A stretch of DNA of 64,000 nt, from contig CAWKOT010000011.1 of assembly GCA_963851305.1 (NCBI GenBank), positions 329,716-393,715 on the forward strand. The letters run 5' to 3'. Both the position numbers and the translations under genes were made by a program. Shown here in pieces: positions 3,815-34,688 of the stretch (within the stretch, counting starts at the first letter, position 1; each line of letters opens with the position of its first letter). The notes under the pieces were generated by a model. The model saw only the letters and a program-made list of their open reading frames with translations. It was not told the origin of the DNA and ran no database searches. The DNA is from Pirellulaceae bacterium. Lineage in GTDB: Bacteria; Planctomycetota; Planctomycetia; Pirellulales; Pirellulaceae.

Positions 3815-3829
3815 GGCTGATCCAGATTC

Positions 3830-6067
3830 ATGAACCATAAAAATCGCCAGCATCTTAAACTGCCTGCCGAGATCGCCGCGCAATTGCGCGAACTGCGTCG
3901 ACGCCTGAAACGCTGGGTGTTGATCCGCGGCCTGAGCCGGTGGCTTCTACTGGTGCTGGCCATTATCGGGTTCGACATCCTGCTGGATCGGTTCTTCAAG
4001 ATGGATTTCGCGCAGCGGGCGATCATGTTGACCGTCATGCTGCTGCTGTTTGCAGGACTGTTCCTGTGGCGCGTGGTACGACCCTTGATGTCGCGCATTT
4101 CCGATAACGGGCTGCTGCTGGAAATCGAAAACAGGCATCCCGAACTGAAAGAGAATCTGATTAGCGGAGCGCAGCTTGCCCAGCAATCGGATTTGGAATC
4201 CAAAGGCGTGTCCCTGGAATTGGCGAACGCGACCATTGAACGCAGCCTGGAACTGGCGCGGCGGTTGGACGTCAGCGATACCATCAATCAGGTGGAAAAC
4301 CGGAAAAATGCAGCGCTGCTGGGAACGGGTCTGTTGCTGGCCCTGGCGCTTGCGGCCGCGGTCGGACAGTCCAGCTTTTTTCGCACCTGGTTCAATCGCA
4401 ATATTCGGTTGACCTCAGATCAATGGCCCCAGGCAACCTACTTGCAGATTGTGGGCGCCCGGGATGGCGAATTGGTGCTGCCGCGGGGTGTGGACCATCG
4501 GTTGATCGTTGAAGTGACTGAAGATAGTCGAATCAGGGACGTCGACGTGTTTCTGGAAATCGATGGTGCCGCCGGGCAAACGGTGCATCAGATGAAACCC
4601 ACGGGCAAGCGGAATGGGCGTGAACATCTGTTTGTGATGCACAACGTGACCTCCGAAGCTCGATTGCGGGCCCGCGGCGGAGACGATATCACGTCGCAGG
4701 TTGCCATCCGGCTTGTGGAACCGCCGGCCATTATGGATTTGCAGCTGTCGGCGGTGTTGCCCTCGTATACCCGGATGCCGGACCGGCGGCTGGAAGGCCC
4801 GGGGCCGCACAGCTTGCTGGCCGGTAGCCGTGTCGATGGGATCGCCCGCGTCAACAAGAAGCTGCAGAAGTTTCAATTGACCAGTGAGGGCCAGGTCGTC
4901 AATTTGCAGCCAGCCGACCAGGAAGACGTTTACCAGTTTCAAATTCCAGGAACTGACCAGCGACTGGCCGGCGGTCGGTACGAATTCAGTCTGGTGGACG
5001 AAGCGGGGCTGGCCTCCACGCGCCCAAGTCGCTTTACGATCAATATCAAGGAAGACCAGCCGCCGCGTGTGCGGGCGACGTTGCTCGGCATCAGTGGACT
5101 GGCGGTCCCCCGCGCTCGCATCCCGCTGTCCTTTAATGCCCGGGACGAATATGGGCTGGCTACGGTCGGCTTTCAGGCCAACTGGAAAAATGCGGATCAG
5201 GAAGACAGCGATTCTGGTAAAGAACGTGCTTTGCCGATCAGGAAATTTCCCTCGGGGCAGGAACCGGTGTTACAGCATCAGGATGTGGCCGTGCTGGATC
5301 TTGAACCGCTGTTGCTGACGCCGGGTACCAGTTTCCGGCTGTTGATTCGCGCCACCGACACTCGTCCCGGTCAACCCAACGCGGGGGATTCCCCGGAATT
5401 TCTGCTCCGGATTGTGTCGGAAGAGGAACTTCGGGCAGACCTGTTGCGTCGAGAAATAGAGCAACGGAAGGCCTTTCAACGGGCTTACGATGCACAACTG
5501 GAAGCGATGGCTGAGTTGCAGGCGATTACGGCGACAGGAGCTTCGCCATTGGATCGGAACGACGCCGGCACCGACCGGCCGTCGCGGATGATTGGGCTGG
5601 TGCGAGACCAGAAACTGGTGGGAACCAGTCTGGCGGCCATCGCTGATCAATTTGAAGAGTTTCTCGTGGAGGTGCAAAACAATCGACTCGACGAAGAAAC
5701 ACAGAAGATCGCCGGCGCACAGACGATTACCGATCGCTTCGACAATCAGATTGTTCAACCGATTCGAGCTTTGGATGCGGAATTGATCGCGGTGGCGACC
5801 CGTGGACTGGATAATTGCCGCCGATTGCTAAACGACCAGACCGGACTGGCCGCGGCGGTCGAATCGACAACGTCGATTCAGCAACAGATTCTGGACGAAA
5901 TGCAGCGGATCATGGCGGCCATGGTTGACTCCGAAAATTACCAGGAAGTGGTCAACAAGCTGCTGGAGATCAAGCGGGGCGAAGACCGGATCAAGTCGGA
6001 AATCAACAGCCGGAAAGAGAAACGGAATGAAACGATCATCGAAGAAGATATTTTTGACGACGATTGA
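3830..6067 (+). CDS. membrane-anchored hypothetical protein (large extracytoplasmic domain, C-terminal coiled coil)
   Basis: 745-aa ORF. N-terminal TM helices (WLLLVLAIIGFDILL, IMLTVMLLLFAGLFLW) precede a long soluble region. It follows the VWA gene in the same orientation with a 16-nt gap. Confidence 0.5.
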   Translation: MNHKNRQHLKLPAEIAAQLRELRRRLKRWVLIRGLSRWLLLVLAIIGFDILLDRFFKMDFAQRAIMLTVMLLLFAGLFLWRVVRPLMSRISDNGLLLEIENRHPELKENLISGAQLAQQSDLESKGVSLELANATIERSLELARRLDVSDTINQVENRKNAALLGTGLLLALALAAAVGQSSFFRTWFNRNIRLTSDQWPQATYLQIVGARDGELVLPRGVDHRLIVEVTEDSRIRDVDVFLEIDGAAGQTVHQMKPTGKRNGREHLFVMHNVTSEARLRARGGDDITSQVAIRLVEPPAIMDLQLSAVLPSYTRMPDRRLEGPGPHSLLAGSRVDGIARVNKKLQKFQLTSEGQVVNLQPADQEDVYQFQIPGTDQRLAGGRYEFSLVDEAGLASTRPSRFTINIKEDQPPRVRATLLGISGLAVPRARIPLSFNARDEYGLATVGFQANWKNADQEDSDSGKERALPIRKFPSGQEPVLQHQDVAVLDLEPLLLTPGTSFRLLIRATDTRPGQPNAGDSPEFLLRIVSEEELRADLLRREIEQRKAFQRAYDAQLEAMAELQAITATGASPLDRNDAGTDRPSRMIGLVRDQKLVGTSLAAIADQFEEFLVEVQNNRLDEETQKIAGAQTITDRFDNQIVQPIRALDAELIAVATRGLDNCRRLLNDQTGLAAAVESTTSIQQQILDEMQRIMAAMVDSENYQEVVNKLLEIKRGEDRIKSEINSRKEKRNETIIEEDIFDDD

Positions 6068-6082
6068 AGTTCGACCTGGTTT

Positions 6083-8233
6083 ATGAAACTGCGAATGGAT
6101 CGGAAGAAACCCATGTTGGATCATCTCATGACAGCCCGGAACGCAACGTTTGTCGTGATCCTCTGGCTGGGTTACGGCTTGAATCTGTACGGGCAGCCGG
6201 ATGACGCGTTGCAGAAATCGGAACTGGGTGCACGGCAACGCCTGGTCGAACGAAAAATGGTCGAACTGGAAAACCGGTTTACGGCCATCGCGGAAAAGTT
6301 GAAGGACAAGGAACCGGAGCGTCATCAACGCTTGGTGGCAGCATACCAGCAGGCAAAAGAGGATCTGATCACCCGCAAGATGGCGGAGATTGGCCAGTTG
6401 CTGGACGCTGGACAACTGGAGCCGGCGGAAGAAAAACTGGGACAGGTTATTCAGGCATTGGACGACCTGGTCCGCTTGTTGCTGAACAATCAGTCGCAAA
6501 AACCCGATCGGCAGGAACAGATTGCGCAACTTGAGGCCTGGAAGAAAACCATTCAGCAGTTGCGGCAAGAGCAGGTTCAGCAACGTACCGAGACCCGCAA
6601 GGTATCCAATAAAGACGCTGAGATTGCGAAGCTGGACGAACAGCTGAAGAAACTGGATGGTCTCATTGACCGTCAACGAGGATTGATCGAACAGTCGCGA
6701 CAGGCCGGCAACGCGGGTTTGCGAGCCCTCGACAAGGTGGCTGATCGCCAATTTGAATTGAGACAGGACACCCGGAATCTGGCTCGGGATGTGGCGGGTG
6801 AAAAGCCGGCTGCGGGAGACGGTCGACCGTCCTCGCCGACAAATGCCGAGTCGTCGGATGCGGCGGCACCGGATCGCCGCGGCGAAAACCAGGCGCAACC
6901 CGCCGGCCAGGGACAGGAATCGGATGCTGACTCAAGCGGCGAGCCATCAGACGAAGCCGCGGAACAACCTTCGGACAAGCCGCCAGGCGACGCATCCGAT
7001 GATTTACCCCAGCAGTCGCAATCCGGCAAGGATCCCAGGTCGGGTGGAAAATCGGGCGGCGACGGGTCGCCTGCCGGCCAGGCCGGTCGATCGGACAATG
7101 GGAACCAGCCGCCCCAGCCGGGACAAGCGCCGCTGGAGAAGGCGGCCGAGTCCCAGGCACGAGCGGAAGAGGATCTGGGCAGTGGGCGACCAGCCGACGC
7201 GGAGCGTCAGCAGCAACAGGCCCTGCAACAGATGGAACAGGCTCGATCGGAGCTGAAGAAAGAGCGACGACGACTGGCTTCCCTGCCGCCTGAGGCGGTC
7301 AAATCCATGGCTCGCAAACAGCGCCGTACGCGTGACAAGGCGCTCGAACTGGTGGAACAGATGGCCGAGGCACCGACTCAGGAAACCGGGCAGGATGAAC
7401 AGCAGGTCAGCCAGCCCAATGCGCCCAGCCAACCTGGGCAACAACCGATGAAACAGGCCTCCGAATCGATGCAGGGGGCCGCCGACGATCTGGAACAGCA
7501 GGACACCAGGCGGGCAGAAAGAAAACAGCAGCAGGCGCAAGAGAAACTCGATGAAGCGTTGGAAGAACTGGAAGAGAGACTGAATCAGCTGCGGGAAGAA
7601 ACCCGCGAAGAGAAACTGCGGCGCCTGGAAGGTCGCTTTCGCGAAATGCTGGATCGACAACGTTCGGTCAGCATGACCACGATTGAAGTCGACGACAGAA
7701 AAGTCAACCTCGGCCAGTTGCAACGACGGGATCAACTGGTGGTCTTACGGATGGCAACGGAAGAACTTGAAATCGGTGAACTGGGCCAGCAGGCTTATGA
7801 TCTGTTGCTGGAAGACGGTACCAGCGAAGTCTTCCCGGAAATGGTTCAGGATTTGAGGAGCGATCTGATCCGAGCCGGTGATCTATTGCAGCAGGAGCGA
7901 ACGGATCAGTTGACGCAATTGTTACATCAGGAAATTGAGTATGCGTTGCTGGATCTGCTGGGTGCGCTGGCGGAATCCAAGGACGAAGGCGATCAACAAG
8001 GGGGCGGTGGAGGCGGTGGCGGTGGCGACCAACCGTTGCTCAAGCCATCAGCGGAACTTAAAATGTTAAGGGCGGCTCAACAGCGTTTGAATCGCAAGAC
8101 CACTCAGCTGGATAGCATCCGAAATGCACGCGCAGGTCAGGACGATTCGCTGCGTCGGGAAATCGAAGGCCTGTCCGCTCAGCAGTCGAAGCTTCAGGAA
8201 ATGGCGGAGCAGATCATGGAAAAGGAAAACTGA
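6083..8233 (+). CDS. hypothetical coiled-coil protein with acidic, Q/E-rich low-complexity region and a poly-Gly tract
   Basis: 716-aa ORF with an N-terminal hydrophobic segment, long heptad-like E/Q/R-rich stretches and a GGGGGGGGG tract near the C-terminus. Several long antisense ORFs inside it are artefacts of GC-rich low complexity. Confidence 0.5.
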   Translation: MKLRMDRKKPMLDHLMTARNATFVVILWLGYGLNLYGQPDDALQKSELGARQRLVERKMVELENRFTAIAEKLKDKEPERHQRLVAAYQQAKEDLITRKMAEIGQLLDAGQLEPAEEKLGQVIQALDDLVRLLLNNQSQKPDRQEQIAQLEAWKKTIQQLRQEQVQQRTETRKVSNKDAEIAKLDEQLKKLDGLIDRQRGLIEQSRQAGNAGLRALDKVADRQFELRQDTRNLARDVAGEKPAAGDGRPSSPTNAESSDAAAPDRRGENQAQPAGQGQESDADSSGEPSDEAAEQPSDKPPGDASDDLPQQSQSGKDPRSGGKSGGDGSPAGQAGRSDNGNQPPQPGQAPLEKAAESQARAEEDLGSGRPADAERQQQQALQQMEQARSELKKERRRLASLPPEAVKSMARKQRRTRDKALELVEQMAEAPTQETGQDEQQVSQPNAPSQPGQQPMKQASESMQGAADDLEQQDTRRAERKQQQAQEKLDEALEELEERLNQLREETREEKLRRLEGRFREMLDRQRSVSMTTIEVDDRKVNLGQLQRRDQLVVLRMATEELEIGELGQQAYDLLLEDGTSEVFPEMVQDLRSDLIRAGDLLQQERTDQLTQLLHQEIEYALLDLLGALAESKDEGDQQGGGGGGGGGDQPLLKPSAELKMLRAAQQRLNRKTTQLDSIRNARAGQDDSLRREIEGLSAQQSKLQEMAEQIMEKEN

Positions 8234-8289
8234 TCCATGCTGATCCGTCGGCGCAAGGACGCATTCATTGACGCATTGAAAGTACCAAC

Positions 8290-9348
8290 ATGTTTTTCAA
8301 AGCAGGGAACCGATTGATTGCCTTGCAGGTGGCCATCCTGGCGTCGTGCTTAGGTATCGGTTTTGCCGCGGCGGACGGGACTACCGACGAAGCGCTGGTC
8401 GATGCGTTTCTGGCTCATGTGGCTGACCTGGAAACGGTGGATGCTGACAAGTTGGAACAGGTTAACCGCATCGTGGCGGAATGGAGGTCGGACTCTCCGG
8501 CCGACGCCCTGACGGAATCAATGATCGCGATTTACGATGGTTACGCTGCCGCGATTGAAGCGTCCGATGGCACCGAATCGAGCGATGCCGCCAGCCTGCT
8601 GGCACCGTTTGCCGATTCGCCGGACAGCTATCTGGCGGCCGATGCGACCTTTTACCTGGCTCGCACCCTGATGAATCATGAAAAATTTGAAGACGCCCTG
8701 CCCTTGCTGGAAAAGGTCCTCGGACCCTTGTCCGATTACACGGTACACGTGGGACCGGCCCGTTTTTATCAGGGAGTGGCGTGGGCGGGACTACTGCAAT
8801 ATGACAAGGCGGTGGCCTCGTTGAAGGATTTCCTGCAGTCTTACCCCGATGCGCCGGAGCGGTTGCGTGTGGCGGCCTGGCGGCAAGTGCAGCAGCTACA
8901 GTCCATCCAGGAAGGGCAGATGGAAGACATCTACCAGCGAATGGACTATTCACGCCGTCGGTTGGCCCAGGTTAAATCCGGTGAACAGACGCAGGAACAA
9001 CAGGACCGGATTGTCCGCATGCTGAATCGCCTGATCAAGGAACAGGAAAAGAAAGAGGCAAGCAGTAAAAGCCAGAATCAGAAACAGCAGAATAAGCAGC
9101 AACAGCAGCAGCAACAGGCTAATCAGAAACGTCAGCCCAGCAAGAGCCAGACCGGCGGCCAGAGCAGTAATCCCAACGGAGAGGTCGTGAAGAAGTCCTA
9201 TAACGACGGACCGGCCAGTCCCTGGAGTCGTCTGCGAGATCGCAGCCGCGATCCGGCGAATAATGCCATCAAAGATAAATTGCCTGCTCGGTATCGCGAT
9301 ATCGTCGAACGTTACTACGAAGCGGCTAATGGGAATTCCGGGAAATAG
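8290..9348 (+). CDS. secreted TPR-like protein with a Q/N/K-rich tail
   Basis: 352-aa ORF with a signal-peptide-like N-terminus (LIALQVAILASCLGIGFAAA), TPR-like helical repeats and a QQNKQQQQQQQ tract. Confidence 0.45.
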   Translation: MFFKAGNRLIALQVAILASCLGIGFAAADGTTDEALVDAFLAHVADLETVDADKLEQVNRIVAEWRSDSPADALTESMIAIYDGYAAAIEASDGTESSDAASLLAPFADSPDSYLAADATFYLARTLMNHEKFEDALPLLEKVLGPLSDYTVHVGPARFYQGVAWAGLLQYDKAVASLKDFLQSYPDAPERLRVAAWRQVQQLQSIQEGQMEDIYQRMDYSRRRLAQVKSGEQTQEQQDRIVRMLNRLIKEQEKKEASSKSQNQKQQNKQQQQQQQANQKRQPSKSQTGGQSSNPNGEVVKKSYNDGPASPWSRLRDRSRDPANNAIKDKLPARYRDIVERYYEAANGNSGK

Positions 9349-9424
9349 TCGATTGCATTTACGCTCGGGTGGCATCACGACGGTGGTTTCGAGGTGGTCG
9401 GTAAACTACCTGCAAGTCATCCTG

Positions 9425-10606
9425 ATGGCATGGGCCGTCGGTATCGGCTGGTCCGCCAGCTTGCCCGCGGCAACGGATAATCTGGAAGACGTTCGTTTGC
9501 GACTGGTCAACGGATCCTCGATACGGGCCACGATCAATGCGATTGAGGAAGACGGTGCCGTCCTCGGCAGTCGGATCCTGCAGAACGTGACGCTGGAAGA
9601 AATTACCAATATCTCGACGGGAAGGTCGGCGAGGGAATTGGAATCGAAGCCGGTGGTGCGACTGGCTGCGGGCAGCCTGATTCCTTTCTCGCAGATCGCG
9701 GTGACCGGCGATTCGGCTCGGATGACCAGCGGTGATCAACAGCTGGATATCCCCCTGGAGTTGATTCGTGGGATCGTCTGGAAGCGTGGAGCGAACGTGG
9801 AAGCGGCCATGGTGGACCCGCCCAGCGACCAGGATTCCGTGATAGTGCAAACTCCCCAAGGGGATCGCACGGTAAATGGATTACTGGAATCGATCGACGC
9901 GACCCACGTCAGCATGGTTTATCAGGGAAAATCCAGAAGAATCCGGCTCGACAAGGTAAAAGCGGTCGTGCCCGCTGCATTGAAGCTTTCTCCCCCCGTG
10001 GGAACGTTGGCCACGATCCGGCTGGTCGACGGGGCAACGTTGGTGGGAGCCATTGAATCCTATCGCGAAAACGTGTTGACGCTGGCCCTGTCTGGACAGC
10101 AACCTTTCACGGTGATGGCGGCGAAAGTGTCCAGTATTTCCATCCAAACCGATCGAATTGCCTGGCTATCGGATCTGAATCCAGTTCGATCGGAGCAGCA
10201 GTCACAATTCGTGGCAGCCAGAAACTGGCAGCGGGATCGCAGTCTGCTCGGCAATCCGATCCGATTGAAATTCAACGCCAGCACGCGGATTCACGAATTC
10301 GAAAAAGGGATCGGCACGCGATCCTACACATCGCTTGTCTATGAAAACACCAAGGACTTCAGCCAGTTTCGGGCGGTCGTCGGAATTGATGTCGAAACGA
10401 ATGGTCATGGCGATTGTGAAATGGTGGTGGAAGGTGATGGAATTCGGTTGTGGTCGCAGCGCGTCCGGGCTACCGACGATCCGCTGCCGATCGTGGTCGA
10501 TATCGCCGGTATCCGGGAAATCGCCCTGATCGTTTTGCCGGGCGAGGATTTTGACCTTGCGGATCACGCCGACTGGGCGGATGCCCGGTTTACTCGAATT
10601 GACTGA
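9425..10606 (+). CDS. secreted protein with a C-terminal NPCBM-like (carbohydrate-binding-module-like) domain
   Basis: C-terminus GIGTRSYTSLVYENTKDFSQFRAVVGIDVE...DCEMVVEGDG..LW...PIVVDIAGIREIALIVLPGEDFDLADHADWADARF matches the NPCBM/NEW2 consensus. Start set at the internal Met preceding a signal peptide (MAWAVGIGWSASLPAA). Confidence 0.5.
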   Translation: MAWAVGIGWSASLPAATDNLEDVRLRLVNGSSIRATINAIEEDGAVLGSRILQNVTLEEITNISTGRSARELESKPVVRLAAGSLIPFSQIAVTGDSARMTSGDQQLDIPLELIRGIVWKRGANVEAAMVDPPSDQDSVIVQTPQGDRTVNGLLESIDATHVSMVYQGKSRRIRLDKVKAVVPAALKLSPPVGTLATIRLVDGATLVGAIESYRENVLTLALSGQQPFTVMAAKVSSISIQTDRIAWLSDLNPVRSEQQSQFVAARNWQRDRSLLGNPIRLKFNASTRIHEFEKGIGTRSYTSLVYENTKDFSQFRAVVGIDVETNGHGDCEMVVEGDGIRLWSQRVRATDDPLPIVVDIAGIREIALIVLPGEDFDLADHADWADARFTRID

Positions 10607-16003: not shown

Positions 16004-17302
16004 TCAGGCGTCTTGCCGGCAATGCTGGAAACGCCGTTCCACGGACCGGGCATGTGCTGCCAGGCCTTCCAGTCGCCCCATCGCCTCGGCATCAGTCGCC
16101 AGGCCAGCTGCCGCGACAGGATCATCGATCTGGAGTTGCGTCTGCATTCTCAAGAAAGTGGCTACCGAAAGCGGGCTGTTGGCGCAGGCCGCGCCTCCGG
16201 TCGGCAACACGTGATTCGGCCCTGCTCCGTAATCTCCCAGGACCTCCGCCGCGTAAGAACCGACAAACAACGCCGCGCCCATGTCGAACGTCTCAGCGAC
16301 AGCTTCAAATTCAGCCCCTTGCAACGAGAGATGTTCCGGAGCGATTCGCCGACAACATTCGACCGCCTGTTCCAGGCCGTCCACCACGACGTATCCACCC
16401 GATTGCAAGGCCGTCCGGGCAACTTCTGCGGTGGGCAGGTCGGACAGCTGTTTCTCCAGTTCCGCAGTCACCGCGTCAACCAGTGCTGACGAATTCGTGA
16501 TCAGGATCGGGCGGGCGTCGACATCATGTTCGGCTTGAGCCAACAGGTCCGCGGCGACAAAACCCGCGTCGGCGTCGGCGGAAGCCACGACCACCAATTC
16601 TGACGGTCCCGCCAGCATATCGATTCGCGTCGATCGCGCGACGAGCGCCTTGGCTGCGGTGACAAACCGATTTCCTGGTCCCACAATCACGTCACATTTT
16701 GGCAGTCCGCTGTCCAGACCGGTGCTCATCGCGGCGATCGCCTGAGCGCCGCCCACCGAAATCAACCCGTCGGCGTCTGCGATGGCCGCCGCGGCCAGCG
16801 TCACCGCATCAGGTCGTGGTGAGGCGACCCAGACTTCCCTTACCCCCGCCACTCGAGCCGTCACGGCCGTCATCAGCACCGATGACGGCAACGGATAGCG
16901 ACCACCAGGTGCGTAACATCCGGCCGCCCGCAACGGAATCCAGCGATGGCCGACCGAACCACCCGGAATGTCGACGGAGCAATCGGTAAGTGTTGCCAAT
17001 TGGATTTCGGCAAAACGTCGAATGCGATCGGCAGTCCGCTGCAGCAGCGAACGGATGTCGACATCGACCGTTTGCAGCGCGTTCAACAAATCTGGGCGAT
17101 GTTGTACAAGCGTCGCGTCCTCGGACAGACCGTCAAACTTCGCCGCATACCGACGCACAGCGGCTTCGCCTTCGGCCTGCACATCAGCAACGATCTGGCC
17201 AGCGACGTGATACGTTTCGTCATCGATCGACGAGGTGATCTGGTGAAGTTCATCCGGTGGCAGCTGACGAAATGGAAACATCTTTCGGGATCCTGGGTTC
17301 AA
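16004..17302 (-). CDS. hisD: histidinol dehydrogenase
   Basis: 432-aa ORF. Motifs IPGGSVGHRWIPLRAAGCYAPGGRYPLPSSVLMTAVTARVAGV and AGPNHVLPTGG are characteristic of HisD. Last gene of the his operon. Confidence 0.9.
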   Translation of the reverse strand: MNPGSRKMFPFRQLPPDELHQITSSIDDETYHVAGQIVADVQAEGEAAVRRYAAKFDGLSEDATLVQHRPDLLNALQTVDVDIRSLLQRTADRIRRFAEIQLATLTDCSVDIPGGSVGHRWIPLRAAGCYAPGGRYPLPSSVLMTAVTARVAGVREVWVASPRPDAVTLAAAAIADADGLISVGGAQAIAAMSTGLDSGLPKCDVIVGPGNRFVTAAKALVARSTRIDMLAGPSELVVVASADADAGFVAADLLAQAEHDVDARPILITNSSALVDAVTAELEKQLSDLPTAEVARTALQSGGYVVVDGLEQAVECCRRIAPEHLSLQGAEFEAVAETFDMGAALFVGSYAAEVLGDYGAGPNHVLPTGGAACANSPLSVATFLRMQTQLQIDDPVAAAGLATDAEAMGRLEGLAAHARSVERRFQHCRQDA

Positions 17303-18579
17303 ACGGTATCTCTGCGTGTGACCTTGTCTGCACGTCGGTCGAGTTCGTGTTCGATTTCCGAGAGAGGGATCTGTTCTTTGGCCAAACGAGCCATCGTAAA
17401 GAAGATCACATCGGCGGCTTCGTGAATCACATCCTGCCGGGCAACGGCCTCGTTCAACTCTCTGGCTTCCTCGGCTATTTTTTCAGCCAACAACGCGGGC
17501 GATTGAAACAGGCGATGGGTATACGAAGATTCAGGGGCCGTCCGCATCCGGTCGGCCAGCGTCGTCTCCAACCGCTGAATGCCCTTCAAATCACCGAAAC
17601 AGGTCGGTCGCGACAGATGACAGAATCCGTGTCCCTGCTGGTTCACCGCAAACATCAACGTATCGCGATCGCAGTCACAATGGATCGACAACATTTCTTG
17701 AGTGGCACCCGATGTTTCCCCCTTTCGCCACAGACCCCGTTTCCGCGAAAAGTAGTGCGCGGTTCCGGTATCCAGACTTCTCTGCACGCTTTCCAGGTTG
17801 GAATAGGTCAAGCCCAACGTCTGGCCGGAGGCATTGCAAACCACGGTCGGCCAGAGGCCGTCGGTTCGATCCGAAACCAGCGGTGCACAAAAACACTCCG
17901 CCAAAGTCAACTGCTCCGTGTACAAAGCCATGCCGACCTGGGCATCGATACCAAGTCGATCCAGGGCTGCGATCTCATCGACAGTGGCAACTCCGCCGGC
18001 GATCGTCAGTTGGGCATCTCCGGCGGCGTCCAGATATCGCTTGATCTGTTCAAGATCGATGCCCGCCATTCTGCCTTCCCTTTCAACGAAAGTGATCAGG
18101 AAGCCACCCACGAGATCGCGAAGCACTTCGATCCGCTCCAGCACCGTCGCGCCCGTTTCACGTGTCCAGCCTTGATCGACAACTTGACCGGTCGATCGGG
18201 TTGGATCTTCGGCCGTTCCGGTATGGACTGCGTCGAGTGCGGCGATCAGTCTGTTCCGAGGTAACTGGCTGAGAATCTCAGGTGTGGCGGCGGTGCCCAG
18301 GATCACCTTTTTTGCGCCGGCATCTAACCAGGAGATGGCGGTCTGCGCATCGCGAATGCCACCGCCGACTCGGCAGGGTGCCAAGGCCAACAGCTCGCGA
18401 ATGCGCTCCGTGTTATGGCCCTGTCCTCGGGCCGCATCCAGATCGATCACCGCGATCTCGCCGACTCGGCCGAATTTCTCGGCCAACGGTGCCGGATGGC
18501 CTGCGTTGAGCGCCTGTTCGCGACCGCCAATCAATTGTACGGCATCGCCTGATGCCAGATCTATCGAGGGGATTATCAT
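17299..18579 (-). CDS. hisA/hisIE: trifunctional HisA-HisI-HisE fusion (ProFAR isomerase + PR-AMP cyclohydrolase + PR-ATP pyrophosphatase)
   Basis: The N-terminal 235 aa, starting MIIPSIDLASGDAVQLIGG, is a HisA (beta/alpha)8 barrel. The middle region GETSGATQEMLSIHCDCDRDTLMFAVNQQGHGFCH is HisI. The C-terminal region YTHRLFQSPALLAEKIAEEARELNEAV...EAADVIFFTMARL is HisE. Confidence 0.85.
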   Translation of the reverse strand: MIIPSIDLASGDAVQLIGGREQALNAGHPAPLAEKFGRVGEIAVIDLDAARGQGHNTERIRELLALAPCRVGGGIRDAQTAISWLDAGAKKVILGTAATPEILSQLPRNRLIAALDAVHTGTAEDPTRSTGQVVDQGWTRETGATVLERIEVLRDLVGGFLITFVEREGRMAGIDLEQIKRYLDAAGDAQLTIAGGVATVDEIAALDRLGIDAQVGMALYTEQLTLAECFCAPLVSDRTDGLWPTVVCNASGQTLGLTYSNLESVQRSLDTGTAHYFSRKRGLWRKGETSGATQEMLSIHCDCDRDTLMFAVNQQGHGFCHLSRPTCFGDLKGIQRLETTLADRMRTAPESSYTHRLFQSPALLAEKIAEEARELNEAVARQDVIHEAADVIFFTMARLAKEQIPLSEIEHELDRRADKVTRRDTV

Positions 18580-19328
18580 ATTCGGATCGCCTCTCCCATG
18601 GCTGCCAGTTCTCTTTTCAATTGACCGACCGTGGTCACGCCATCATGCAGAATCGAAGCCAGCAACACGGCGGCTGCGCCGGCCTGCAAACCAAGATGAA
18701 GGTGGTGTGCCGAATCGGCCCCTCCGGAAGCAATCACTGGAATCGCCAGCCGCTGCGTGACGGCGGCCAGCAATTCACAATCGTAGCCACGGCGAGTACC
18801 GTCCTGATCGAAGCTGGTCAGCAGGATTTCCCCGGCCCCGGCCGATTCGACGCGGGTCGCCCACTCGATGACATCCACACCAGTCATTTCTTTTCCGGCG
18901 TGCGTCAGAACATGCCAGCCATCTTCCGCTCGCCGGGCATCGATCGCCACAACGGTACACTGGCGACCGAAACGGTCGGCCATGGCCGTAATCAACTCCG
19001 GTTGCTGAAAAGCCGCGGTGTTGACGCTGACGCGGTCCGCGCCGGCATCGGTCAAACGTTGGACATCATCCATCGTCCTGACGCCGCCGCCAACGGTCAG
19101 CGGAATGGATAGCGATTGGCGAACGTCCTGTACCGTTTGCAATTGGGTCCGTCGGCGGTGATTGGTGGCGGAGATGTCCAGAACCACCAGTTCGTCCGCG
19201 CCCTGAGACTCATAGGCCGCCGCCAATTCGGCTGGGCTGCCGACATCTCTCAGTCCGGCAAACTTGACTCCCTTCACCACCCGATTGTCACTGACATCCA
19301 GGCAGGGGATGATCCGCGAGGTCAACAT
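18576..19328 (-). CDS. hisF: imidazole glycerol phosphate synthase cyclase subunit
   Basis: N-terminus RIIPCLDVSDNRVVKGVKF is a HisF hallmark. 250 aa. Overlaps neighbours by 4 nt. Confidence 0.9.
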   Translation of the reverse strand: MLTSRIIPCLDVSDNRVVKGVKFAGLRDVGSPAELAAAYESQGADELVVLDISATNHRRRTQLQTVQDVRQSLSIPLTVGGGVRTMDDVQRLTDAGADRVSVNTAAFQQPELITAMADRFGRQCTVVAIDARRAEDGWHVLTHAGKEMTGVDVIEWATRVESAGAGEILLTSFDQDGTRRGYDCELLAAVTQRLAIPVIASGGADSAHHLHLGLQAGAAAVLLASILHDGVTTVGQLKRELAAMGEAIRI

Positions 19329-19981
19329 AGTGAACTCTCCTGGTTGTCCGTCCGTATTCCCTGGCTATCTGGCTTCCTGCCCAACCAGCGGGCCAGTAGT
19401 TCCTGCCCTGCGCTGCCAGATAATTCGGGATGGAACTGGCAACCCACGAATCGCCCTTTCCGAACGGCCGCAACCAACGTGAGACCGTGTTCTGATGTGG
19501 CCACCTGCCAACCGCTGGCCGTCAGACGATCGACTTCGCTCAGGCAGTACGAATTTGCATAAAAGACATAACCCGGTTCAAAGAAACCCGTTGGACACTG
19601 CATCCAATTCCATCCGAATTGAGGTACCGAAACGTTACTGGGCAAACGTTCGACATGGACCGGTAACAGACCCAATCCGGCAATCCCCGGGCTTTCCTGA
19701 CTGTCAAGGCAAAGCAGCTGTAATCCAAGACAGATGGCCAGCGTCGGCAGATCGGATTCCAGTCTCGTCCTCAGGACCGATTCCCAGTTCTGTTCGCGAA
19801 GGGCGGCCATTCCTGCCTGGAACGCCCCGACACCGGGAAGGACCAGCGGATCATCCGGTTGCAATTCCGACGGAGCTTTCACGATATAGGATTGGATACC
19901 CAAACGATGGAAGGCGGCCCGCACGGAGGCCAAATTGGCCGTGCCGGTGCGAATGATGGCGACCTGTCGTGGCGAATTCAT
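19322..19981 (-). CDS. hisH: imidazole glycerol phosphate synthase glutamine amidotransferase subunit
   Basis: MNSPRQVAIIRTGTANLASV..LVLPGVGAF..; class-I GATase fold. Start trimmed to the internal Met at 19981, directly after hisB. Confidence 0.9.
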   Translation of the reverse strand: MNSPRQVAIIRTGTANLASVRAAFHRLGIQSYIVKAPSELQPDDPLVLPGVGAFQAGMAALREQNWESVLRTRLESDLPTLAICLGLQLLCLDSQESPGIAGLGLLPVHVERLPSNVSVPQFGWNWMQCPTGFFEPGYVFYANSYCLSEVDRLTASGWQVATSEHGLTLVAAVRKGRFVGCQFHPELSGSAGQELLARWLGRKPDSQGIRTDNQESSLC

Positions 19982-19983
19982 GA

Positions 19984-20585
19984 TTACAGTGAACCTTTGG
20001 TGCTGGGAATGGAGCCTTCGGCGTCGGCCAGCGGTACCGACTGCGAACAAGCGGTACGCATGGCAATCCCGCACGACTTGAATGCGGCCTCGGCACGGTG
20101 ATGATCGTTCGCTCCCCGCAGGACATCCAGATGCAAAGTCAAACGACCGGCCATCGCCAGTGACTGAAAGAAATGAGTCAGATTTTCACAGGCGACGTTA
20201 CCCAGCAACTCCCGTTGCAAACCCAGTTCAACCACCGGGAACGGTCGACCGGAAAGATCGATCACGCAACGCGCCAGGGCTTCATCCAGCGGTGCGTAAG
20301 CGTGTCCAAACCTGCGAATGCCCTGCTTGTTGCCGATGCCCGACCGAGCGCTTCCCCAATGACCAGGCCGCAGTCTTCGACCGTGTGGTGATCGTCGACG
20401 TGCAAGTCTCCATTGGCCTGGAGTGTCAGATCCCAATTGGCGTGAAAGGCCAGGGCCGTCAACATGTGATCGAAGAACCCCAGTCCGGTCGAAACATCAA
20501 TCCGCCGATTTCCTTCCAGATCGATCTCCATTTCGATTTGGGTTTCTCGCGTTTGTCGTTGCAAGCGGCAGCTACGTTCACTCAT
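19984..20585 (-). pseudogene. hisB: imidazoleglycerol-phosphate dehydratase, monofunctional, split by a 1-nt frameshift near 20340
   Basis: N-terminal half (ORF 20262..20585: GLGFFDHMLTALAFHANWDLTLQANGDLHVDDHHTVEDCGLVIGEAL) and C-terminal half (ORF 19984..20436: IGNKQGIRRFGHAYAPLDEALARCVIDLSGRPF...) are in different frames. Junction at CTCGGTCGGGCATCGGC. Confidence 0.8.
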
Positions 20586-22342
20586 GGCAGGTACCTGTCC
20601 AGCGTATTCAAACGGTCCAGAATCAGTGTGGCTCGGGCTTGTCTCAGTTTTTCCAGGGCGAATCGCGGTTCGTCTTTAGGTGCCAGAATACCAAACGGTA
20701 ATACGCCGGCCTGTCGTGCCGCGTTGACATCGTCGGGAGTGTCTCCCACCATCCAGGCTCGATTGGTACCCAACTGGTCCAGAGCGGTTCTGACATTTGC
20801 CGGGTTCGGCTTGGCAGGGCCGTCCTCCATGCAAACCACGGCTGAGAAAAACTGGCTCAGTTGCTGCGATTCCAGGAAGCGGACGGCATCACATCGAGGT
20901 CGGCCGGTCACAATACCCAGTTTGATCCGCCGGCTCAGGTTCTGCAGCCATTGACGGTCAACCAGTTGTTCTTCCGTTTTCCACAGGCCTTCTCGCGATT
21001 CGTCCCCCTGGTAATACCGTTCATAACGCTCCTTGACTTCGTCGAAGGGTCTGTCGATGCCCTTTTCGCGAAGCAGTCGATGCGTAAAAATCCAGTCGTT
21101 GTTGGCGTCGCCGCAGAGTTTCTTTTCCGCGATCTCCATCATCGTGACCGGCAAGCCATACTCTGCGCAAGTCAAACGAATGGCTTCGCGGAACGAACTG
21201 GATTCGTCGACCAGTACCCCATCCATGTCGAAAAGCATGGCCTCGGGACGCAGAATGGTTCGCAAGGAAGCCGCCAGCCGCTCGTACGACGCCCGGTCAC
21301 CAGGACAGGTTATTCGCAGAACGTCAGGTTCACTTTGGAAGGACCTGACCGCAATCCCCAGCGAATCCAGTGCTTTGCCAACGAACTCAGCCGAAGGTCC
21401 GGTCAAACCGAAACGGGCGTACACGAAATTGGCCTGGGAAGGCAATGCTTCGGCGCCGCAGTCATTCAATAGATCCGCCAGTTGCTTTCGCTCTGAACGC
21501 ACCTGTTTCAGATATTCGGTGTCACCTTTGGGACGAGTTTGCAGCATCATGCCGGCAAATTTAAGGGCAGGCCCGGAAACCGGGTACGGCCCCCCTGCCC
21601 GATTCAACAGGGAAATGATGCTGTGGTGACCCATGGCGTAACCGACACGCAGACCGGCCATGCCCCAGGCTTTCGAAAACGTCCTGACGACTACCGCGTT
21701 CGGCAATTCCGACAGGGCAACCGATGTCAAATTGCCCGCGAGTAAGGCGTGCTCGTCGTCTTCGAACTCCGCATAGGCTTGATCGACCAGCAACACGGCG
21801 TGGGGAACGGCCGTTCCAATGGCCAAAAGCTCGTCAGTACCAATCGTGGCACCGGTCGGGTTGTTGGGCGAAACCAGCGCAATCACACTGGTTTTGCTGT
21901 CCGAGATCCGGATCATGTGGTCAATCGGAATACTCCCCCCTGTCCAGGGAACCTGTCGTATCTGCCCGCCAGCCACACTGGCGAAGTGCGGAATCATGGG
22001 AAAGGTCGGATCGGTAACCACGATGTTTCGATCGGCCTGAAGAAAGGCACGACAGATGCGATCGATCGCGTCATCCGCTCCGCTGGTCACGATCACCTGT
22101 TCCGGCGCGATGCTGAACCGGGTGGCGAGCATCCGGGAAATTGAATTCCGCGAGGGGTACTGTCGAATGTCATCGGGCGTGAAGAAGTCGTGAGCCAGAC
22201 CCGACAGGAGCGGGCCTTCGTTCGCATCCAGTTTCAAGTCGATGTGCGATTTTTCGCCAGCCAGCTCGTCTGTGGGCAGCCGCTCGATGCGGTCGGCCGG
22301 TTGAACTTTGGGGTCCCTGGTCGGTTTCAAATCAATCTTCAT
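20582..22342 (-). CDS. hisC: histidinol-phosphate aminotransferase fused to a C-terminal HAD-family phosphatase domain (candidate histidinol-phosphatase)
   Basis: The N-terminal 350 aa are a class-II aminotransferase (LDANEGP..., PLP-fold). The C-terminal 230 aa carry HAD motifs I (LFDMDGVLVDES), II (GIVTGRP) and III/IV (K...MVGDTPDDVNAARQAG). Confidence 0.85.
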   Translation of the reverse strand: MKIDLKPTRDPKVQPADRIERLPTDELAGEKSHIDLKLDANEGPLLSGLAHDFFTPDDIRQYPSRNSISRMLATRFSIAPEQVIVTSGADDAIDRICRAFLQADRNIVVTDPTFPMIPHFASVAGGQIRQVPWTGGSIPIDHMIRISDSKTSVIALVSPNNPTGATIGTDELLAIGTAVPHAVLLVDQAYAEFEDDEHALLAGNLTSVALSELPNAVVVRTFSKAWGMAGLRVGYAMGHHSIISLLNRAGGPYPVSGPALKFAGMMLQTRPKGDTEYLKQVRSERKQLADLLNDCGAEALPSQANFVYARFGLTGPSAEFVGKALDSLGIAVRSFQSEPDVLRITCPGDRASYERLAASLRTILRPEAMLFDMDGVLVDESSSFREAIRLTCAEYGLPVTMMEIAEKKLCGDANNDWIFTHRLLREKGIDRPFDEVKERYERYYQGDESREGLWKTEEQLVDRQWLQNLSRRIKLGIVTGRPRCDAVRFLESQQLSQFFSAVVCMEDGPAKPNPANVRTALDQLGTNRAWMVGDTPDDVNAARQAGVLPFGILAPKDEPRFALEKLRQARATLILDRLNTLDRYLP

Positions 22343-22428: not shown

Positions 22429-23310
22429 TCAGGGTACGATCTGGCTCACCTTGGTAACCACAACGTCGCGTCCGCCCACCTGCTTTACTCGAGGGATCAC
22501 AAAGGGTAAATCGGTGCGCAGGATCGCCGCCCGAACAGCATACCCCGAATTGCCGGATAACGTTGCGACGGTCGGTTGTTGCATGGCGGGCAGCACGGAA
22601 ATCACGTCTTCCATCTGTTCCGCCGATACGTTGACTTCAATCATCAGTCGTTGCCGACCATCCAGTACCGCCTGCAACAACAGCTTCAGATCTTCGATCC
22701 GCGATCGTTTGGCGGCATCCTTAAAGGCTGCCTGACTGGCGTACAGTCGCGTGCTGGAACGCATGATCTCGTCAATGATTACCAGGCCGTTGTCACGCAG
22801 TGTACTTCCAGTCGCCGTATTGTCGACAATCAGGTCCGCGTCCTCTGGCGGAAAGACTTCGGTCGCACCATTGGATTTGACGAAACCGGCGTCCAGATTC
22901 TTTTCCCGGATCCAGTCTCTGGTAAGCCGCTCATATTCGGATGCGATTCGCAAACGTATTTCCGGCAGCTGCCCGTCGCACAACAGTGGCTGGGGGGCAG
23001 CGGCGACCAGACGGACGCCATTGAGTTGGGTGTCCAGCACTTCGATGATGCCGTCCTCGTCTGAATCGGCCTGCAACTCCGCCACCCAGTCGGCACCGGC
23101 AAATCCGATATCGCGTGATCCCAGATGCAACATCTCCACGATATTTTGCGGCTTCAGCAGTTTCACCTCCGTGCCAGGAAGAGAGAGCGTCGGGCGGTAG
23201 CCGCGGTCAGAACAGATCATGGAGATACCGGCTTCGGCCAGTAACGCCGTGACCGCGTCCTGCATGCGACCCTTCGGCAGTCCGATTCGAAGAATGGAAT
23301 TTGTGTTCAT
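22429..23310 (-). CDS. hisG: ATP phosphoribosyltransferase (long form with C-terminal regulatory domain)
   Basis: MNTNSILRIGLPKGRMQDAVTALLAEAGI...; 293 aa. First gene of the operon. Confidence 0.9.
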   Translation of the reverse strand: MNTNSILRIGLPKGRMQDAVTALLAEAGISMICSDRGYRPTLSLPGTEVKLLKPQNIVEMLHLGSRDIGFAGADWVAELQADSDEDGIIEVLDTQLNGVRLVAAAPQPLLCDGQLPEIRLRIASEYERLTRDWIREKNLDAGFVKSNGATEVFPPEDADLIVDNTATGSTLRDNGLVIIDEIMRSSTRLYASQAAFKDAAKRSRIEDLKLLLQAVLDGRQRLMIEVNVSAEQMEDVISVLPAMQQPTVATLSGNSGYAVRAAILRTDLPFVIPRVKQVGGRDVVVTKVSQIVP

Positions 23311-23696: not shown

Positions 23697-25119
23697 CTAA
23701 AACACGAATCCAATCAGGACACCAATCAGGACACCCGTCAACAGACAGAGGATCCCGGTGACAAACAAGGTTTGAACCGAAACTACTGCGGTTTCGGCTG
23801 GAAGTCGTGCGGCGGCTCGATATTGTCCACTGATCGTTGGCGGTGGTGGTTTCTCGGAAGGAGATGAAATGAATGAACCGGTTTCCTGACCCGGGTCATG
23901 CATGCTGATGGTGGGGCTGGGGTAACCCGTATTGGACGTGTCGCTCAGTTCGCTCATGGCCATTTCCGCGATGTCTTCCGGGTCGGTATCCTGATCGTCG
24001 ACCGGTTCGACCGGAGCCGCCATCCAGCGAGGACGGGATTCCGACTCGTTTACCAACAGGCTGTCATCGCTGGCCCACGGTGCCAGCCGCTCGGCCACCT
24101 CCATGGCGGACTGGATTCGTTCGGCGGGATCCTTCTCCATCATGTCGCCAATCAAGTCAACGAATTCATCGCTGACTTCATCGTTGAAACGACGGGGATG
24201 CCAGGGCGTTTCATGCAGATGGCGTCGAGCCTTGCTCTTGGGCGTTCCACCCGGAAAGGGAACTTTGCCGGTGATCGCGTAGTACAGCGTGCAACCTAAC
24301 GAATAGATATCGCTGACCGTGGTCACCTGGGCTGGAGTTCGGATCTGTTCGGGCGACAGGTAATCCGCCGTGCCTACGATCTTCCCGATACGGGGATCGT
24401 TTTCGTCGTTCAGGTAGAACGCCAGACCCAGGTCGGAAACCTTGGCCACGCCTCCAGGGGTGACCATGATGTTTCCCGGTTTGACGTCCCGATGGATCAG
24501 GTTCCTTTCATGCGCATGAGAAAGCCCTTCCGCGGCCTGCTTGATGATGTTGGCCGCCTGCTGAACCGACAGTCGACCCGAAGTTCGGACTAGCCGTCTT
24601 AGATCGGTACCGGGAATGTACTCGACAACCAGGTAATGGACCTTGCCATCCTCACCAGCATCAAACGCCCGCACCAGGTTGGAGTGATCCAATTTGGCCT
24701 GCGCCACGGATTTCGCGTCGAAAATTGGCAATCGACTCGGGCGTATTCTTGTGCAACGGCAGTACCTTGATCGCACATTCCCGTCCCAACATCTCGTGAA
24801 CCGCTTTGAACACCTGCCCCATGCCACCCTGGCCAATCCAGTCGGTGATCACGTAGGCCCCCAGCTTCAGCCTTCTGCGACCAGACAATAACTGGTCGGC
24901 CTGATAGGCGGTGACGACTTTCATCTTCACCAGTTGAGAGGCCAGTTTTCGATCGGAGATTTCCAGGGAGGTGTCCGACCTGGAGCTGTTCTGCAGCAAT
25001 TCGGCCGCCGCCAGCCGTAACTGGTCTTCAGTAACCAGGCCGCTTTTCTTACAGGTTTCCCGGAATTTTCGATTGTCGCCCATGAAACCTTCACTTGCGG
25101 ATAGCCAAACTGCAGACAT
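23697..25119 (-). pseudogene. tail-anchored Ser/Thr protein kinase; kinase domain split by a frameshift near 24720
   Basis: ORF 24661..25119 holds the Gly loop and VAIK motif (IGQGGMGQVFKAVHEMLGRECAIKVLP...FRREI). ORF 23697..24836, in another frame, holds HRDVKPGNIM, DLG and APE motifs, a Pro-rich linker and a C-terminal TM (ILCLLTGVLIGVLIGFVF). Confidence 0.75.
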
Positions 25120-33125: not shown

Positions 33126-33340
33126 AAGGTTGGTTTCGCCATGCCAGTTCGAAGCCAATCACGGTACACTCAACACCAACCAGCTGAATGGGGTGCAGAA
33201 CGCCGCTGGCCATTCTGGCCAAACCTTGCCTGAAAATTCATGTGGATCATCTTCCGTTCAACCACGTCCGTGATGGCAGTGGCTTATTCTTGCCCGTCGT
33301 ACGCCAACCAGGTTAAACGTCAGTCCAACAGGGGACCAGG

Positions 33341-33411
33341 AGACGCCGATGGGAGTCGAACCCATTTCGACCGGGTTGCAACCGGTTGCCTGGCCGTCTG
33401 GCTCCAGCGCC
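33341..33411 (-). tRNA. tRNA-Cys(GCA)-like
   Basis: Anticodon arm ACCGG-TTGCAAC-CCGGT, T-arm ATGGG-TTCGACT-CCCAT. Acceptor GGCGCTG/CGGCGTC pairs with two G-U wobbles. G8, 3-bp D-stem. Confidence 0.5.
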
Positions 33412-33418
33412 CAAATAG

Positions 33419-33489
33419 TAGCCCGTCCAGGAATCGAACCTGGCCTGCGACCTTCGCACGGTCGCGTGCCTCCAACACACTCACAGGCT
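33419..33489 (-). tRNA. tRNA-Arg(GCG)-like
   Basis: Anticodon loop GTGCGAA between CGACC/GGTCG. T-arm CCAGG-TTCGATT-CCTGG. Acceptor AGCCTGT/ACGGGCT. G8 and GTGT D-stem. Confidence 0.5.
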
Positions 33490-33556
33490 ATCTTGTCTTT
33501 TCAGGTTTTCATTTTGATGGTCGGCTCCAACGATCTGTTTCCTTGGCCGTCATCAG

Positions 33557-33628
33557 TACCTCGCCAGGGAATCGAACCCCGTCCTGCAGATTCGAAGTCT
33601 GCCGTGCCATCCGTCACACTCGCAAGGC
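33557..33628 (-). tRNA. tRNA-Arg(TCG)
   Basis: Anticodon arm GCAGA-CTTCGAA-TCTGC. T-arm CGGGG-TTCGATT-CCCTG. Acceptor GCCTTGC/GCGAGGT with two G-U pairs. Confidence 0.55.
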
Positions 33629-33659
33629 ATCCGCATTGGCTTACCGCTGGCCGGTCGAG

Positions 33660-33730
33660 CAGGAGTGCCAGGAATCGAACCCTTTGGTGGCGGTTTTGGA
33701 GGCCGCCCGCTTGCCCAGAAGCACACTGCC
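33660..33730 (-). tRNA. tRNA-Trp(CCA)-like (weak T-stem)
   Basis: Anticodon loop CTCCAAA. T-loop TTCGATT, but the T-stem pairs poorly (AAGGG/CCTGG). Possibly affected by an indel. Confidence 0.4.
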
Positions 33731-33740
33731 GAAGGCGAAG

Positions 33741-33814
33741 GGTATCCGACGGGAATCGAACCCGTACTTCCTGCTTCACAGGCAGGCGTGCATGCCCGCT
33801 ACACTTCGGATACC
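33741..33814 (-). tRNA. tRNA-His(GTG) with G-1
   Basis: Acceptor GTATCCG/CGGATAC is perfect, with an extra 5' G pairing the C73 discriminator. Anticodon arm CCTGC-CTGTGAA-GCAGG. T-arm ACGGG-TTCGATT-CCCGT. A8. Confidence 0.75.
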
Positions 33815-33870
33815 ATGCCAGGGAGATGAAAAGTCGTCGATCCGAAACCGATACGGCCTGGACCAGACTG

Positions 33871-33951
33871 TTTTCATCAGTGGAACGTCGGGGAGTCGAA
33901 CCCCGATTGTCCGGTTGCAAACCAGAAGTCTTCCCGTTGGACCAACGTCCC
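33871..33951 (-). tRNA. tRNA-Ala(TGC) with the G3:U70 identity pair
   Basis: Acceptor GGGACGT/ACGTTCC gives G3-U70. Anticodon arm TCTGG-TTTGCAA-CCGGA. T-arm CGGGG-TTCGACT-CCCCG. U8. Confidence 0.7.
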
Positions 33952-33962
33952 CTGATTGCCCG

Positions 33963-34033
33963 AGGTCCGTCCGGGGTTCGAACCCGGTCTTCGTCGGTAC
34001 CATCAACGCGTGCTGCCGGAACACTTACAGACC
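33963..34033 (-). tRNA. tRNA-Thr(GGT)
   Basis: Anticodon arm CGTTG-ATGGTAC-CGACG. T-arm CCGGG-TTCGAAC-CCCGG. Acceptor GGTCTGT/ACGGACC. A8, GTGT/GCAC D-stem. Confidence 0.6.
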
Positions 34034-34069
34034 AATACAGGCGTCCCCATTTGCCGGGGCAACCTGAAG

Positions 34070-34138
34070 TAGCGGGACCGGGAGTCGCACCCGATGGTCA
34101 AGGCATATGAAACCTCGCTGAGCACTCGCTCGCCCGCT
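34070..34138 (-). tRNA. tRNA-Met(CAT)-like with a non-canonical T-loop (TGCGACT)
   Basis: Anticodon loop TTCATAT. The T-loop has G in place of T55. Acceptor has one mismatch. Possibly degenerate. Confidence 0.4.
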
Positions 34139-34417: not shown

Positions 34418-34424
34418 GCTTGAG

Positions 34425-34499: not shown

Positions 34500-34511
34500 A
34501 TTACATTGCAG

Positions 34512-34584: not shown

Positions 34585-34593
34585 ATGGGTCAG

Positions 34594-34677: not shown

Positions 34678-34688
34678 GTATTCGCCAG

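Follow-up and report, generated by a model that had tools for sequence, protein, structure and literature searches.

We analyzed a 64,000-nt stretch of DNA from a Pirellulaceae bacterium (GenBank assembly GCA_963851305.1, contig CAWKOT010000011.1, positions 329,716 to 393,715 of the forward strand; the whole stretch is hereafter the window, with coordinates counted from its first letter). Its histidine-biosynthesis (his) operon contains a gene, hisA·I·E, that joins HisA-, HisI- and HisE-type domains in a single polypeptide of 426 amino acids (aa). The fusion is genuine, and we put the probability that the gene encodes a true trifunctional enzyme, catalyzing steps 2 to 4 of histidine biosynthesis, at about 85%. 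We infer the three activities from the domains present, their fold, the conserved residues, the operon setting and the distribution of the family. The gene and its parts are as follows, with the evidence for each in parentheses:

17299–18579, minus strand, stop codon included: hisA·I·E, a predicted trifunctional open reading frame (ORF) of 426 aa (ORF list, Pfam, NCBIfam).
[quoted passage not shown]
18190–18222, minus strand: insertion TGTAEDPTRST, 11 residues (120–130), adjoining strand β5 of the model (homologue alignment).
17872–17883, minus strand: junction PLVS, four residues, from the barrel to HisI (colinear in homologues).
17590–17871, minus strand: HisI domain, residues 237–330, predicted phosphoribosyl-AMP cyclohydrolase of step 3 (PF01502; matches to PDB 6j2l and 1zps).
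17326–17583, minus strand: HisE domain, residues 333–418, predicted phosphoribosyl-ATP pyrophosphatase of step 2 (PF01503; TIGR03188).
17302–17325, minus strand: C-terminal tail KVTRRDTV (alignments).

The interval 17299–18579 on the minus strand reads as one ATG-started frame of 426 codons with zero internal stops, and its product is 100% identical to a database protein (P0001). A check for a masked stop or frameshift, which the first-pass annotation of this DNA had advised, found none. Pfam places three non-overlapping domains on the protein in the order A-I-E, all far above their gathering scores: His_biosynth (PF00977) at residues 1–224 (E 2.4e-37; 129 bits against a gathering cut-off of 23.6), PRA-CH (PF01502) at residues 257–328 (E 4.7e-26), and PRA-PH (PF01503) at residues 335–416 (E 1.3e-17). 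An AlphaFold2 model built from an alignment of 70 homologues (mean predicted local distance difference test (pLDDT) score 89.7; predicted template modeling score 0.86) reveals eight β/α units spanning residues 1–232, with pLDDT mostly above 85, followed by the β-structure of HisI and the helices of HisE. The only stretch modeled with pLDDT below 50, residues 122–128, lies inside the 11-residue insertion, which the window protein shares with a few relatives and which is missing from most. Structure comparisons with Foldseek against the PDB superpose the barrel on ProFAR- or PRFAR-bound HisA and PriA (3zs4, 5a5w; template modeling (TM) score 0.84, root-mean-square deviation 2.2 Å; PRFAR is the phosphoribulosyl isomer of ProFAR) and place the C-terminal half over HisIE of Shigella (TM 0.80); in the same search, no solved chain spanned more than half of the fused-protein model. 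The first-pass annotation had proposed that three complete domains lie in this one frame, and both Pfam and the model agree. The zinc-region motif that it quoted is likewise present (D302-C303-D304-R305-D306 ... C320-H321 ... C327). Within the tail, K-V-T-R-R is family-conserved, and it extends to K-V-T-R-R-x-G-D/N-A-K-P in longer relatives and in proteins of the type of fungal HIS4 (“HIS4-type”; see below).

We judged residue conservation over the 70 aligned homologues, with reference numbering verified on the PDB entries of Salmonella enterica HisA (5ahe), Streptomyces coelicolor PriA (5dn1/1vzw) and yeast His6 (2agk). Three acidic residues map to key positions of the barrel, each identified from alignments:

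18559–18561, minus strand: Asp7, at the catalytic base position at the end of β1 (equivalent to S. enterica HisA D7 and S. coelicolor PriA D11).
18232–18234, minus strand: Asp116, on β5 (equivalent to S. enterica HisA D129).
18076–18078, minus strand: Glu168, at the general-acid position on β6 (equivalent to S. enterica D176 and S. coelicolor D171).

Asp7 is kept in at least 90% of the 70 homologues, Asp116 is invariant among them, and Glu168 is invariant in the family, where the motif T-F-V-E-R-E-G replaces T-D-I-x-x-D-G. Yeast His6 (2agk) has glutamate at the same aligned position (A-A-D-V-E-G), and since yeast His6 is active, the substitution is compatible with activity. A carboxylate is thereby retained at the acid position, but it belongs to a different residue from that of bacterial HisA. 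The phosphate-binding glycine motifs G72-G74, G95-T96, G195-G196 and G216, which align with S. enterica G81, G102-S103, G203-G204 and G225, are invariant or nearly so, and the Gly137-Trp138 pair of the substrate-covering hairpin is conserved. In the C-terminal half, HisI residues D302, C303, D304, D306, C320, H321 and C327 are all invariant across the 70 homologues, as are the HisE motifs E370-E371-x-x-E374 and E387-x-x-D390.

In the reaction scheme that we propose, the C-terminal all-helical HisE domain would hydrolyze phosphoribosyl-ATP to phosphoribosyl-AMP and pyrophosphate (step 2), and the HisI domain in the middle, which has a Cys/His metal site and a D-C-D-x-D motif, would open the adenine ring and so yield ProFAR (step 3). 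The (βα)8 barrel at the N terminus would then convert ProFAR to PRFAR by an Amadori rearrangement (step 4), with Asp7 as the predicted base and Glu168 as the predicted acid; the substrate would be held by Asp116 and by two glycine-rich phosphate sites. PRFAR would pass to HisF/HisH, which are encoded directly upstream. The domain order A-I-E is thus the reverse of the reaction order. By analogy, the protein may dimerize through HisI/HisE; solved HisI, HisE and HisIE structures are dimeric. The organism could benefit from a fixed 1:1:1 stoichiometry or from a hand-over of ProFAR between domains.

The fused architecture is widespread. A word-indexed search of 5.8 billion proteins with the window protein as query returned 7573 matches at E ≤ 1e-10; the best 120 of these 7573 are all three-domain proteins of 405–459 aa that cover 97–100% of the query at 57–65% identity, and the nearest relative found is 65% identical. 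A search seeded with a Treponema member (36% identical) added 120 further three-domain proteins. phmmer, run exhaustively against 1.84 billion representatives (one per 50%-identity cluster), yielded 422 proteins at E ≤ 1e-30. Among the top 150 representatives, 78 contain all three domains in A-I-E order (median length 418 aa), and the remainder are mostly fragments or HIS4-type proteins. Fusion-bearing genome records have the labels Fimbriimonadales, Phycisphaerae/Phycisphaerales, Ignavibacteria, Acidimicrobiia and Treponema, and the cultured Persicimonas caeni carries hisA·I·E as well (CP042468.1, locus L018, 10730–11992). The first-pass annotation had called an N-terminal HisA unusual: this is so relative to model organisms, but the arrangement is abundant in metagenomes and metagenome-assembled genomes (MAGs).

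We compared 17 operons, namely that of the window and those of 16 related loci (L001–L011, L014–L017, L018). All 17 follow the basic order hisG-(hisC[·HAD])-hisB-hisH-hisF-hisA·I·E-hisD, and the fusion occupies the same operon in genomes of at least six labelled phyla. The fused gene lies between hisF and hisD in the window, L001–L011, L014 and L018; the Treponema loci L009–L011 have hisC between hisA·I·E and hisD, and in L015–L017 hisA·I·E carries hisD fused at its 3′ end. None of the 17 operons contains another hisA, hisI or hisE. Two Chloroflexi loci (L012 and L013) show the canonical order hisB-H-A-F-IE, and because this order has hisF between hisA and hisIE, a single indel could not yield the fusion. 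Moreover, the junction A-P-L-x-S-D-R-x-D-G-L-W-P-T-V is conserved and colinear across homologues.

In the window, the operon runs on the same strand in the order hisG, hisC·HAD, hisB, hisH, hisF, hisA·I·E, hisD. The genes around hisA·I·E are:

22429–23310, minus strand: hisG, the operon's first gene, in the long form with a C-terminal regulatory domain (scores above cut-off for TIGR00070 and for TIGR03455).
20582–22342, minus strand: hisC fused to a TIGR01548-type HAD hydrolase (Pfam and NCBIfam).
19984–20585, minus strand: hisB, imidazoleglycerol-phosphate dehydratase, in two frames (tblastn with the intact HisB of L014).
19322–19981, minus strand: hisH, glutamine amidotransferase subunit, likely start ATG at 19981 (Pfam GATase).
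18576–19328, minus strand: hisF, cyclase subunit, directly upstream of hisA·I·E (TIGR00735, 302.9 bits).
16004–17302, minus strand: hisD, histidinol dehydrogenase, a separate ORF in another frame, directly downstream of hisA·I·E (Pfam Histidinol_dh, 410 bits).

That hisF (18576–19328) and hisH (19322 to about 19981) remain separate genes was correctly read in the first-pass annotation. hisF and hisA·I·E share an ATGA, in which the stop of the former and the start of the latter overlap, and a TTGA likewise combines the hisA·I·E stop with the earliest possible hisD start codon, a TTG; these stop/start overlaps on both flanks suggest translational coupling. We found no separate hisA, hisI or hisE in the window operon, in which each pathway step would be represented once if the HAD domain is a histidinol-phosphate phosphatase. 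The HAD part of hisC·HAD scores 115 bits on TIGR01548, below the cut-off of 140, and it may be the pathway's missing histidinol-phosphate phosphatase. HisC-HAD fusions of 570–600 aa occur in more than 100 homologues, with the source names Planctomycetota, Phycisphaerales, Myxococcota and Persicimonas caeni; the nearest named relatives (“Planctomycetota bacterium”) are about 48% identical, and hisC·HAD co-occurs with hisA·I·E in most of the related loci examined. The hisB frame breaks at about 20337–20346: the first 80 or so residues are read in one frame, those after them in another. The break lies at “cgggcatcgg”, beside a short G run, and one added G restores R-G-I-G-N-K; either the homopolymer was misread in sequencing, or a genuine mutation inactivates the gene.

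We weighed three other explanations for the fused gene. One holds that an assembly or sequencing artefact, an indel that erased the hisA stop, joined hisA to hisIE. The apparent 1-nt break in hisB near a G run in the same operon fits such an error, as does a nearby kinase gene that also appears split over two ORFs, so the assembly is not guaranteed to be indel-free. The first-pass annotation had relied on the tidy 4-nt overlaps elsewhere in the operon to argue against an indel, and this argument is insufficient, since the same operon holds the hisB frame break. What decides the matter is that the junction …L-T-L-A-E-C-F-C-A-P-L-V-S-D-R-T-D-G-L-W-P-T-V… is kept in hundreds of independent homologues at 35–65% identity and is present in 16 related loci from at least six labelled phyla, and that hisF precedes hisA·I·E in every related locus, unlike in the canonical order. 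The colinearity of the junction in independent homologues rules out a merger of hisA and hisIE by an indel, and the chance that the window gene arose as an artefact is negligible.

Several observations weigh against a trifunctional enzyme. The NCBIfam models for HisA (TIGR00007; 131.6 bits against a cut-off of 228.95) and HisIE (NF002747; 140.2 against 187) both fall short of their cut-offs on the fused protein, as does PRK13585 on the barrel (124.9 against 243); of these models, only TIGR03188 for HisE passed (63.1 bits against 42.7). The neighboring HisF, which exceeds the TIGR00735 cut-off, reaches 133.3 bits with the HisA model, roughly the score of the fused barrel. Aspartate has become glutamate at the general-acid position and the preceding T-D has become T-F; the window covers only 64 kb of the genome, so that a second hisA may lie elsewhere; and the hisB break, if real, would render the histidine pathway non-functional in this organism. 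The sub-threshold HisA score, the changed acid, the lost T-D aspartate and the partial view of the genome would equally suit a barrel that is dead or not a HisA at all, with a structural or regulatory role and with the isomerase supplied by another gene elsewhere, and the homologous region of HIS4-type relatives is clearly decayed, so that decay does occur. We nevertheless consider a dead barrel very improbable. The catalytic and phosphate-binding positions are conserved or invariant in the window protein and its 70 relatives, which is unexpected for a decayed domain, whereas the HIS4-type proteins lack G-G-G, D116 and E168; no other hisA is present in 17 operons that otherwise have one gene per step; and yeast His6 is active with glutamate at the acid position. 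The inactive barrel that the first-pass annotation named among the findings that would refute its reading thus gains no support from what appear to be functional residues throughout the family. Since the HisA and HisIE models score below their equivalog cut-offs, we consider the domains to be real yet divergent. HisA is the best-matching model for the barrel (the HisF model reaches 40.9 bits), which from these profile comparisons is HisA-like and not HisF-like, and hidden Markov model scores alone are no proof of function. The last explanation makes the barrel a PriA-like dual-substrate isomerase serving both histidine (HisA) and tryptophan (TrpF) synthesis. Its best PDB sequence matches are to actinobacterial PriA/HisAp (4u28, 4tx9; about 69 bits, against 53 for Salmonella HisA), and M. 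tuberculosis PriA is the top Foldseek match. The margin over Salmonella HisA in Foldseek is negligible, however (both TM 0.84), and on the hisA-trpF equivalog TIGR01919 the barrel reaches only 74.1 bits of the 306.45 required, less than it obtains on the plain HisA model. Moreover, the G-G-G-I-R of the barrel resembles the G-G-G-V-R of Salmonella HisA, not the S-G-G-I-R of S. coelicolor PriA, and we regard dual specificity as very improbable.

The window protein has an architecture that is on record and experimentally uncharacterised, and the first-pass annotation overstated its rarity and novelty. A sequence-network paper mentions HisA-I-E in passing (Witek et al, 2021; PMC8102479), and “HisA/F fusions with HisIE” are noted for four archaeal MAGs in a survey from 2024 (PMC11237513). 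Reviews of his fusions list hisIE, hisNB, hisHF (HIS7), hisIED (HIS4) and the internal elongation of hisA/hisF, and these four reviews do not list a hisA-hisIE fusion (PMC1963479, PMC10138114, PMC8305728, PMC7284861). Our literature searches found no experimental study of any HisA-I-E member. The HisA-I-E proteins in the databases share with the window protein its domain order, colinearity over the full length at 35–65% identity, the place between hisF and hisD and the same invariant residues, including the glutamate acid; the window protein differs in its 11-residue insertion (120–130) and in a short tail ending K-V-T-R-R-D-T-V.

Solved HisIE proteins (E. coli/Shigella, PDB 6j22/6j2l; plant HISN2, 7bgm) have the same I-then-E order, metal-site residues and acidic HisE motifs as the window protein (E 2e-26 for the sequence match), but lack the N-terminal barrel and are only about 35% identical. 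The window I-E module is presumably closer to fungal HIS4, at 46% identity to what we take to be the yeast sequence, than to enterobacterial HisIE. Stand-alone HisA and PriA proteins (S. enterica 5ahe/5a5w; M. tuberculosis PriA 3zs4; yeast His6 2agk) share the (βα)8 fold, the β1 and β5 aspartates, the hairpin Gly-Trp and both phosphate-binding glycine motifs with the window barrel. Unlike stand-alone bacterial HisA, which has an aspartate acid and T-D, the window barrel has Glu168, as in eukaryotic His6, and T-F; it is, moreover, covalently joined to HisIE and falls below all bacterial HisA equivalog cut-offs.

A further 33 representatives from the phmmer search are HIS4-type proteins, with an N-terminal region of about 200 residues that has no Pfam match, followed by PRA-CH, PRA-PH and usually histidinol dehydrogenase. 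They include P0194, P0252 and P0272, with P0202 and P0206 as shorter forms, and are 52–63% identical to what we take to be the yeast HIS4 sequence (799 aa). phmmer alignments to these proteins start within the HisA barrel. In profile–profile comparisons with hhalign, the N-terminal region of 28 HIS4-type representatives matched the fused HisA barrel with a probability of 98.9% (E 1.1e-17) over 181 columns covering the whole barrel, and the 10 representatives longer than 600 aa, of which those tested carry HisD, matched it with 96.2% (E 2.4e-9) over 162 columns. As controls, the 28 representatives scored 34% against HisF (E 4.2e-4, 22 columns) and, when reversed, 0.1% against the fused HisA barrel (E 0.71, 7 columns). 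A joint alignment of the window protein and the HIS4-type proteins is colinear from the very first residues (M-I-I-P-S-I…) onward: L-D-A-G-A-x-K and L-P-x-x-R follow, then the junction S-D-R-x-D-G-L, then HisI and HisE, and last the common tail K-V-T-R-R-x-G-D/N-A-K-P. G-G-G-I-R, D116 and E168 are lost from the HIS4-type barrel region, often together with D7, and the HIS4-type barrel is presumably inactive. Fungi have a separate HIS6.

Like the window protein, fungal HIS4, which we considered together with the split forms of the S. pombe type, places its parts in this colinear order, and hisD directly follows hisA·I·E in the bacterial operon; in HIS4, however, HisD is fused C-terminally to HisI-HisE, whereas in the window hisD is a separate ORF and the barrel is intact. 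By these comparisons, the window protein is homologous to the HIS4-type proteins but does not itself belong to them. For the N-terminal region of fungal HIS4, Fani et al (2007; PMC1963479) gave a length of 160–220 residues with no known domain and no PSI-BLAST relatives, regarded its function as unknown while suggesting a structural rather than catalytic role, and reported that HIS4-like proteins were not found in prokaryotes. Prokaryotic HIS4-like proteins do exist in the form of HisA-I-E-D fusions of about 860 aa. In our view fungal HIS4 probably carries a decayed HisA barrel as its N-terminal region and probably descended from a bacterial-type HisA-I-E-D arrangement like the one in the window operon. 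The homology between this region and the HisA barrel has good support; the direction of descent and the originality of the idea are more tentative. Our literature search, which lay outside structure-based databases and subscription journals, found no paper stating a HisA origin of HIS4.

The A-I-E module also occurs in larger proteins, among them P0123, P0124 and P0135. The exhaustive search, annotated with Pfam, contains an A-I-E-HisG fusion of 777 aa. A-I-E-HisD fusions of about 860 aa are bacterial and come from the same operon type: P0143 (860 aa) is encoded on six contigs (L015, L016), and P0125 (862 aa), with an intact HisA, at L017 (GCA_964590885.1, CAZPWW010000010.1, operon 6544–10589). 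At L017, hisH and hisF are fused as well, giving a HIS7-like protein of 487 aa beside hisA-I-E-D. A-I-E-HisD-HisC-HAD fusions of 1501 aa (P0124) and 1586 aa would bring seven of the ten pathway steps onto one chain.

These proteins extend the inventory of his fusions with a family that reaches up to seven steps per chain, and they offer bacterial counterparts of the “eukaryotic” HIS4 and HIS7 architectures together with an origin for the N-terminal part of fungal HIS4 that is specific and can be tested. By joining three consecutive reactions around ProFAR, HisA-I-E provides a natural test of channelling versus mere fixed stoichiometry, and its barrels appear to form a bacterial HisA clade with glutamate at the general-acid position. 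The family also bears on annotation. HisA-I-E proteins appear as “phosphoribosyl-ATP diphosphatase” at NCBI and as “PR-ATP pyrophosphohydrolase/PR-AMP cyclohydrolase” at JGI. Because these names cover HisE or HisIE only, a name-based reconstruction would miss hisA and, under the NCBI names, also hisI. This could produce false calls of histidine auxotrophy in genomes labelled Planctomycetota, Acidimicrobiia, Ignavibacteria, Armatimonadota (Fimbriimonadales), Treponema and Bradymonadales (Persicimonas).

Elsewhere in the window, three consecutive ORFs of 725, 745 and 716 aa at 1637–8233 on the plus strand have no Pfam match at E ≤ 1e-5. The Ser/Thr kinase gene at 23697–25119 on the minus strand, a second possible assembly frame error, is seemingly split into overlapping ORFs, with the glycine loop and A-I-K motif in 24661–25119 and the catalytic H-R-D-V-K-P-G-N in 23697–24836. 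At 33339–35156 on the minus strand, a tRNA array packs 14 genes with 14 different anticodons into 1.8 kb (Cys, Arg ×2, His, Ala, Thr, Leu, Asp, Val, Ser, Gln, Asn, Gly and Lys), several of them scoring barely above the Rfam tRNA threshold.

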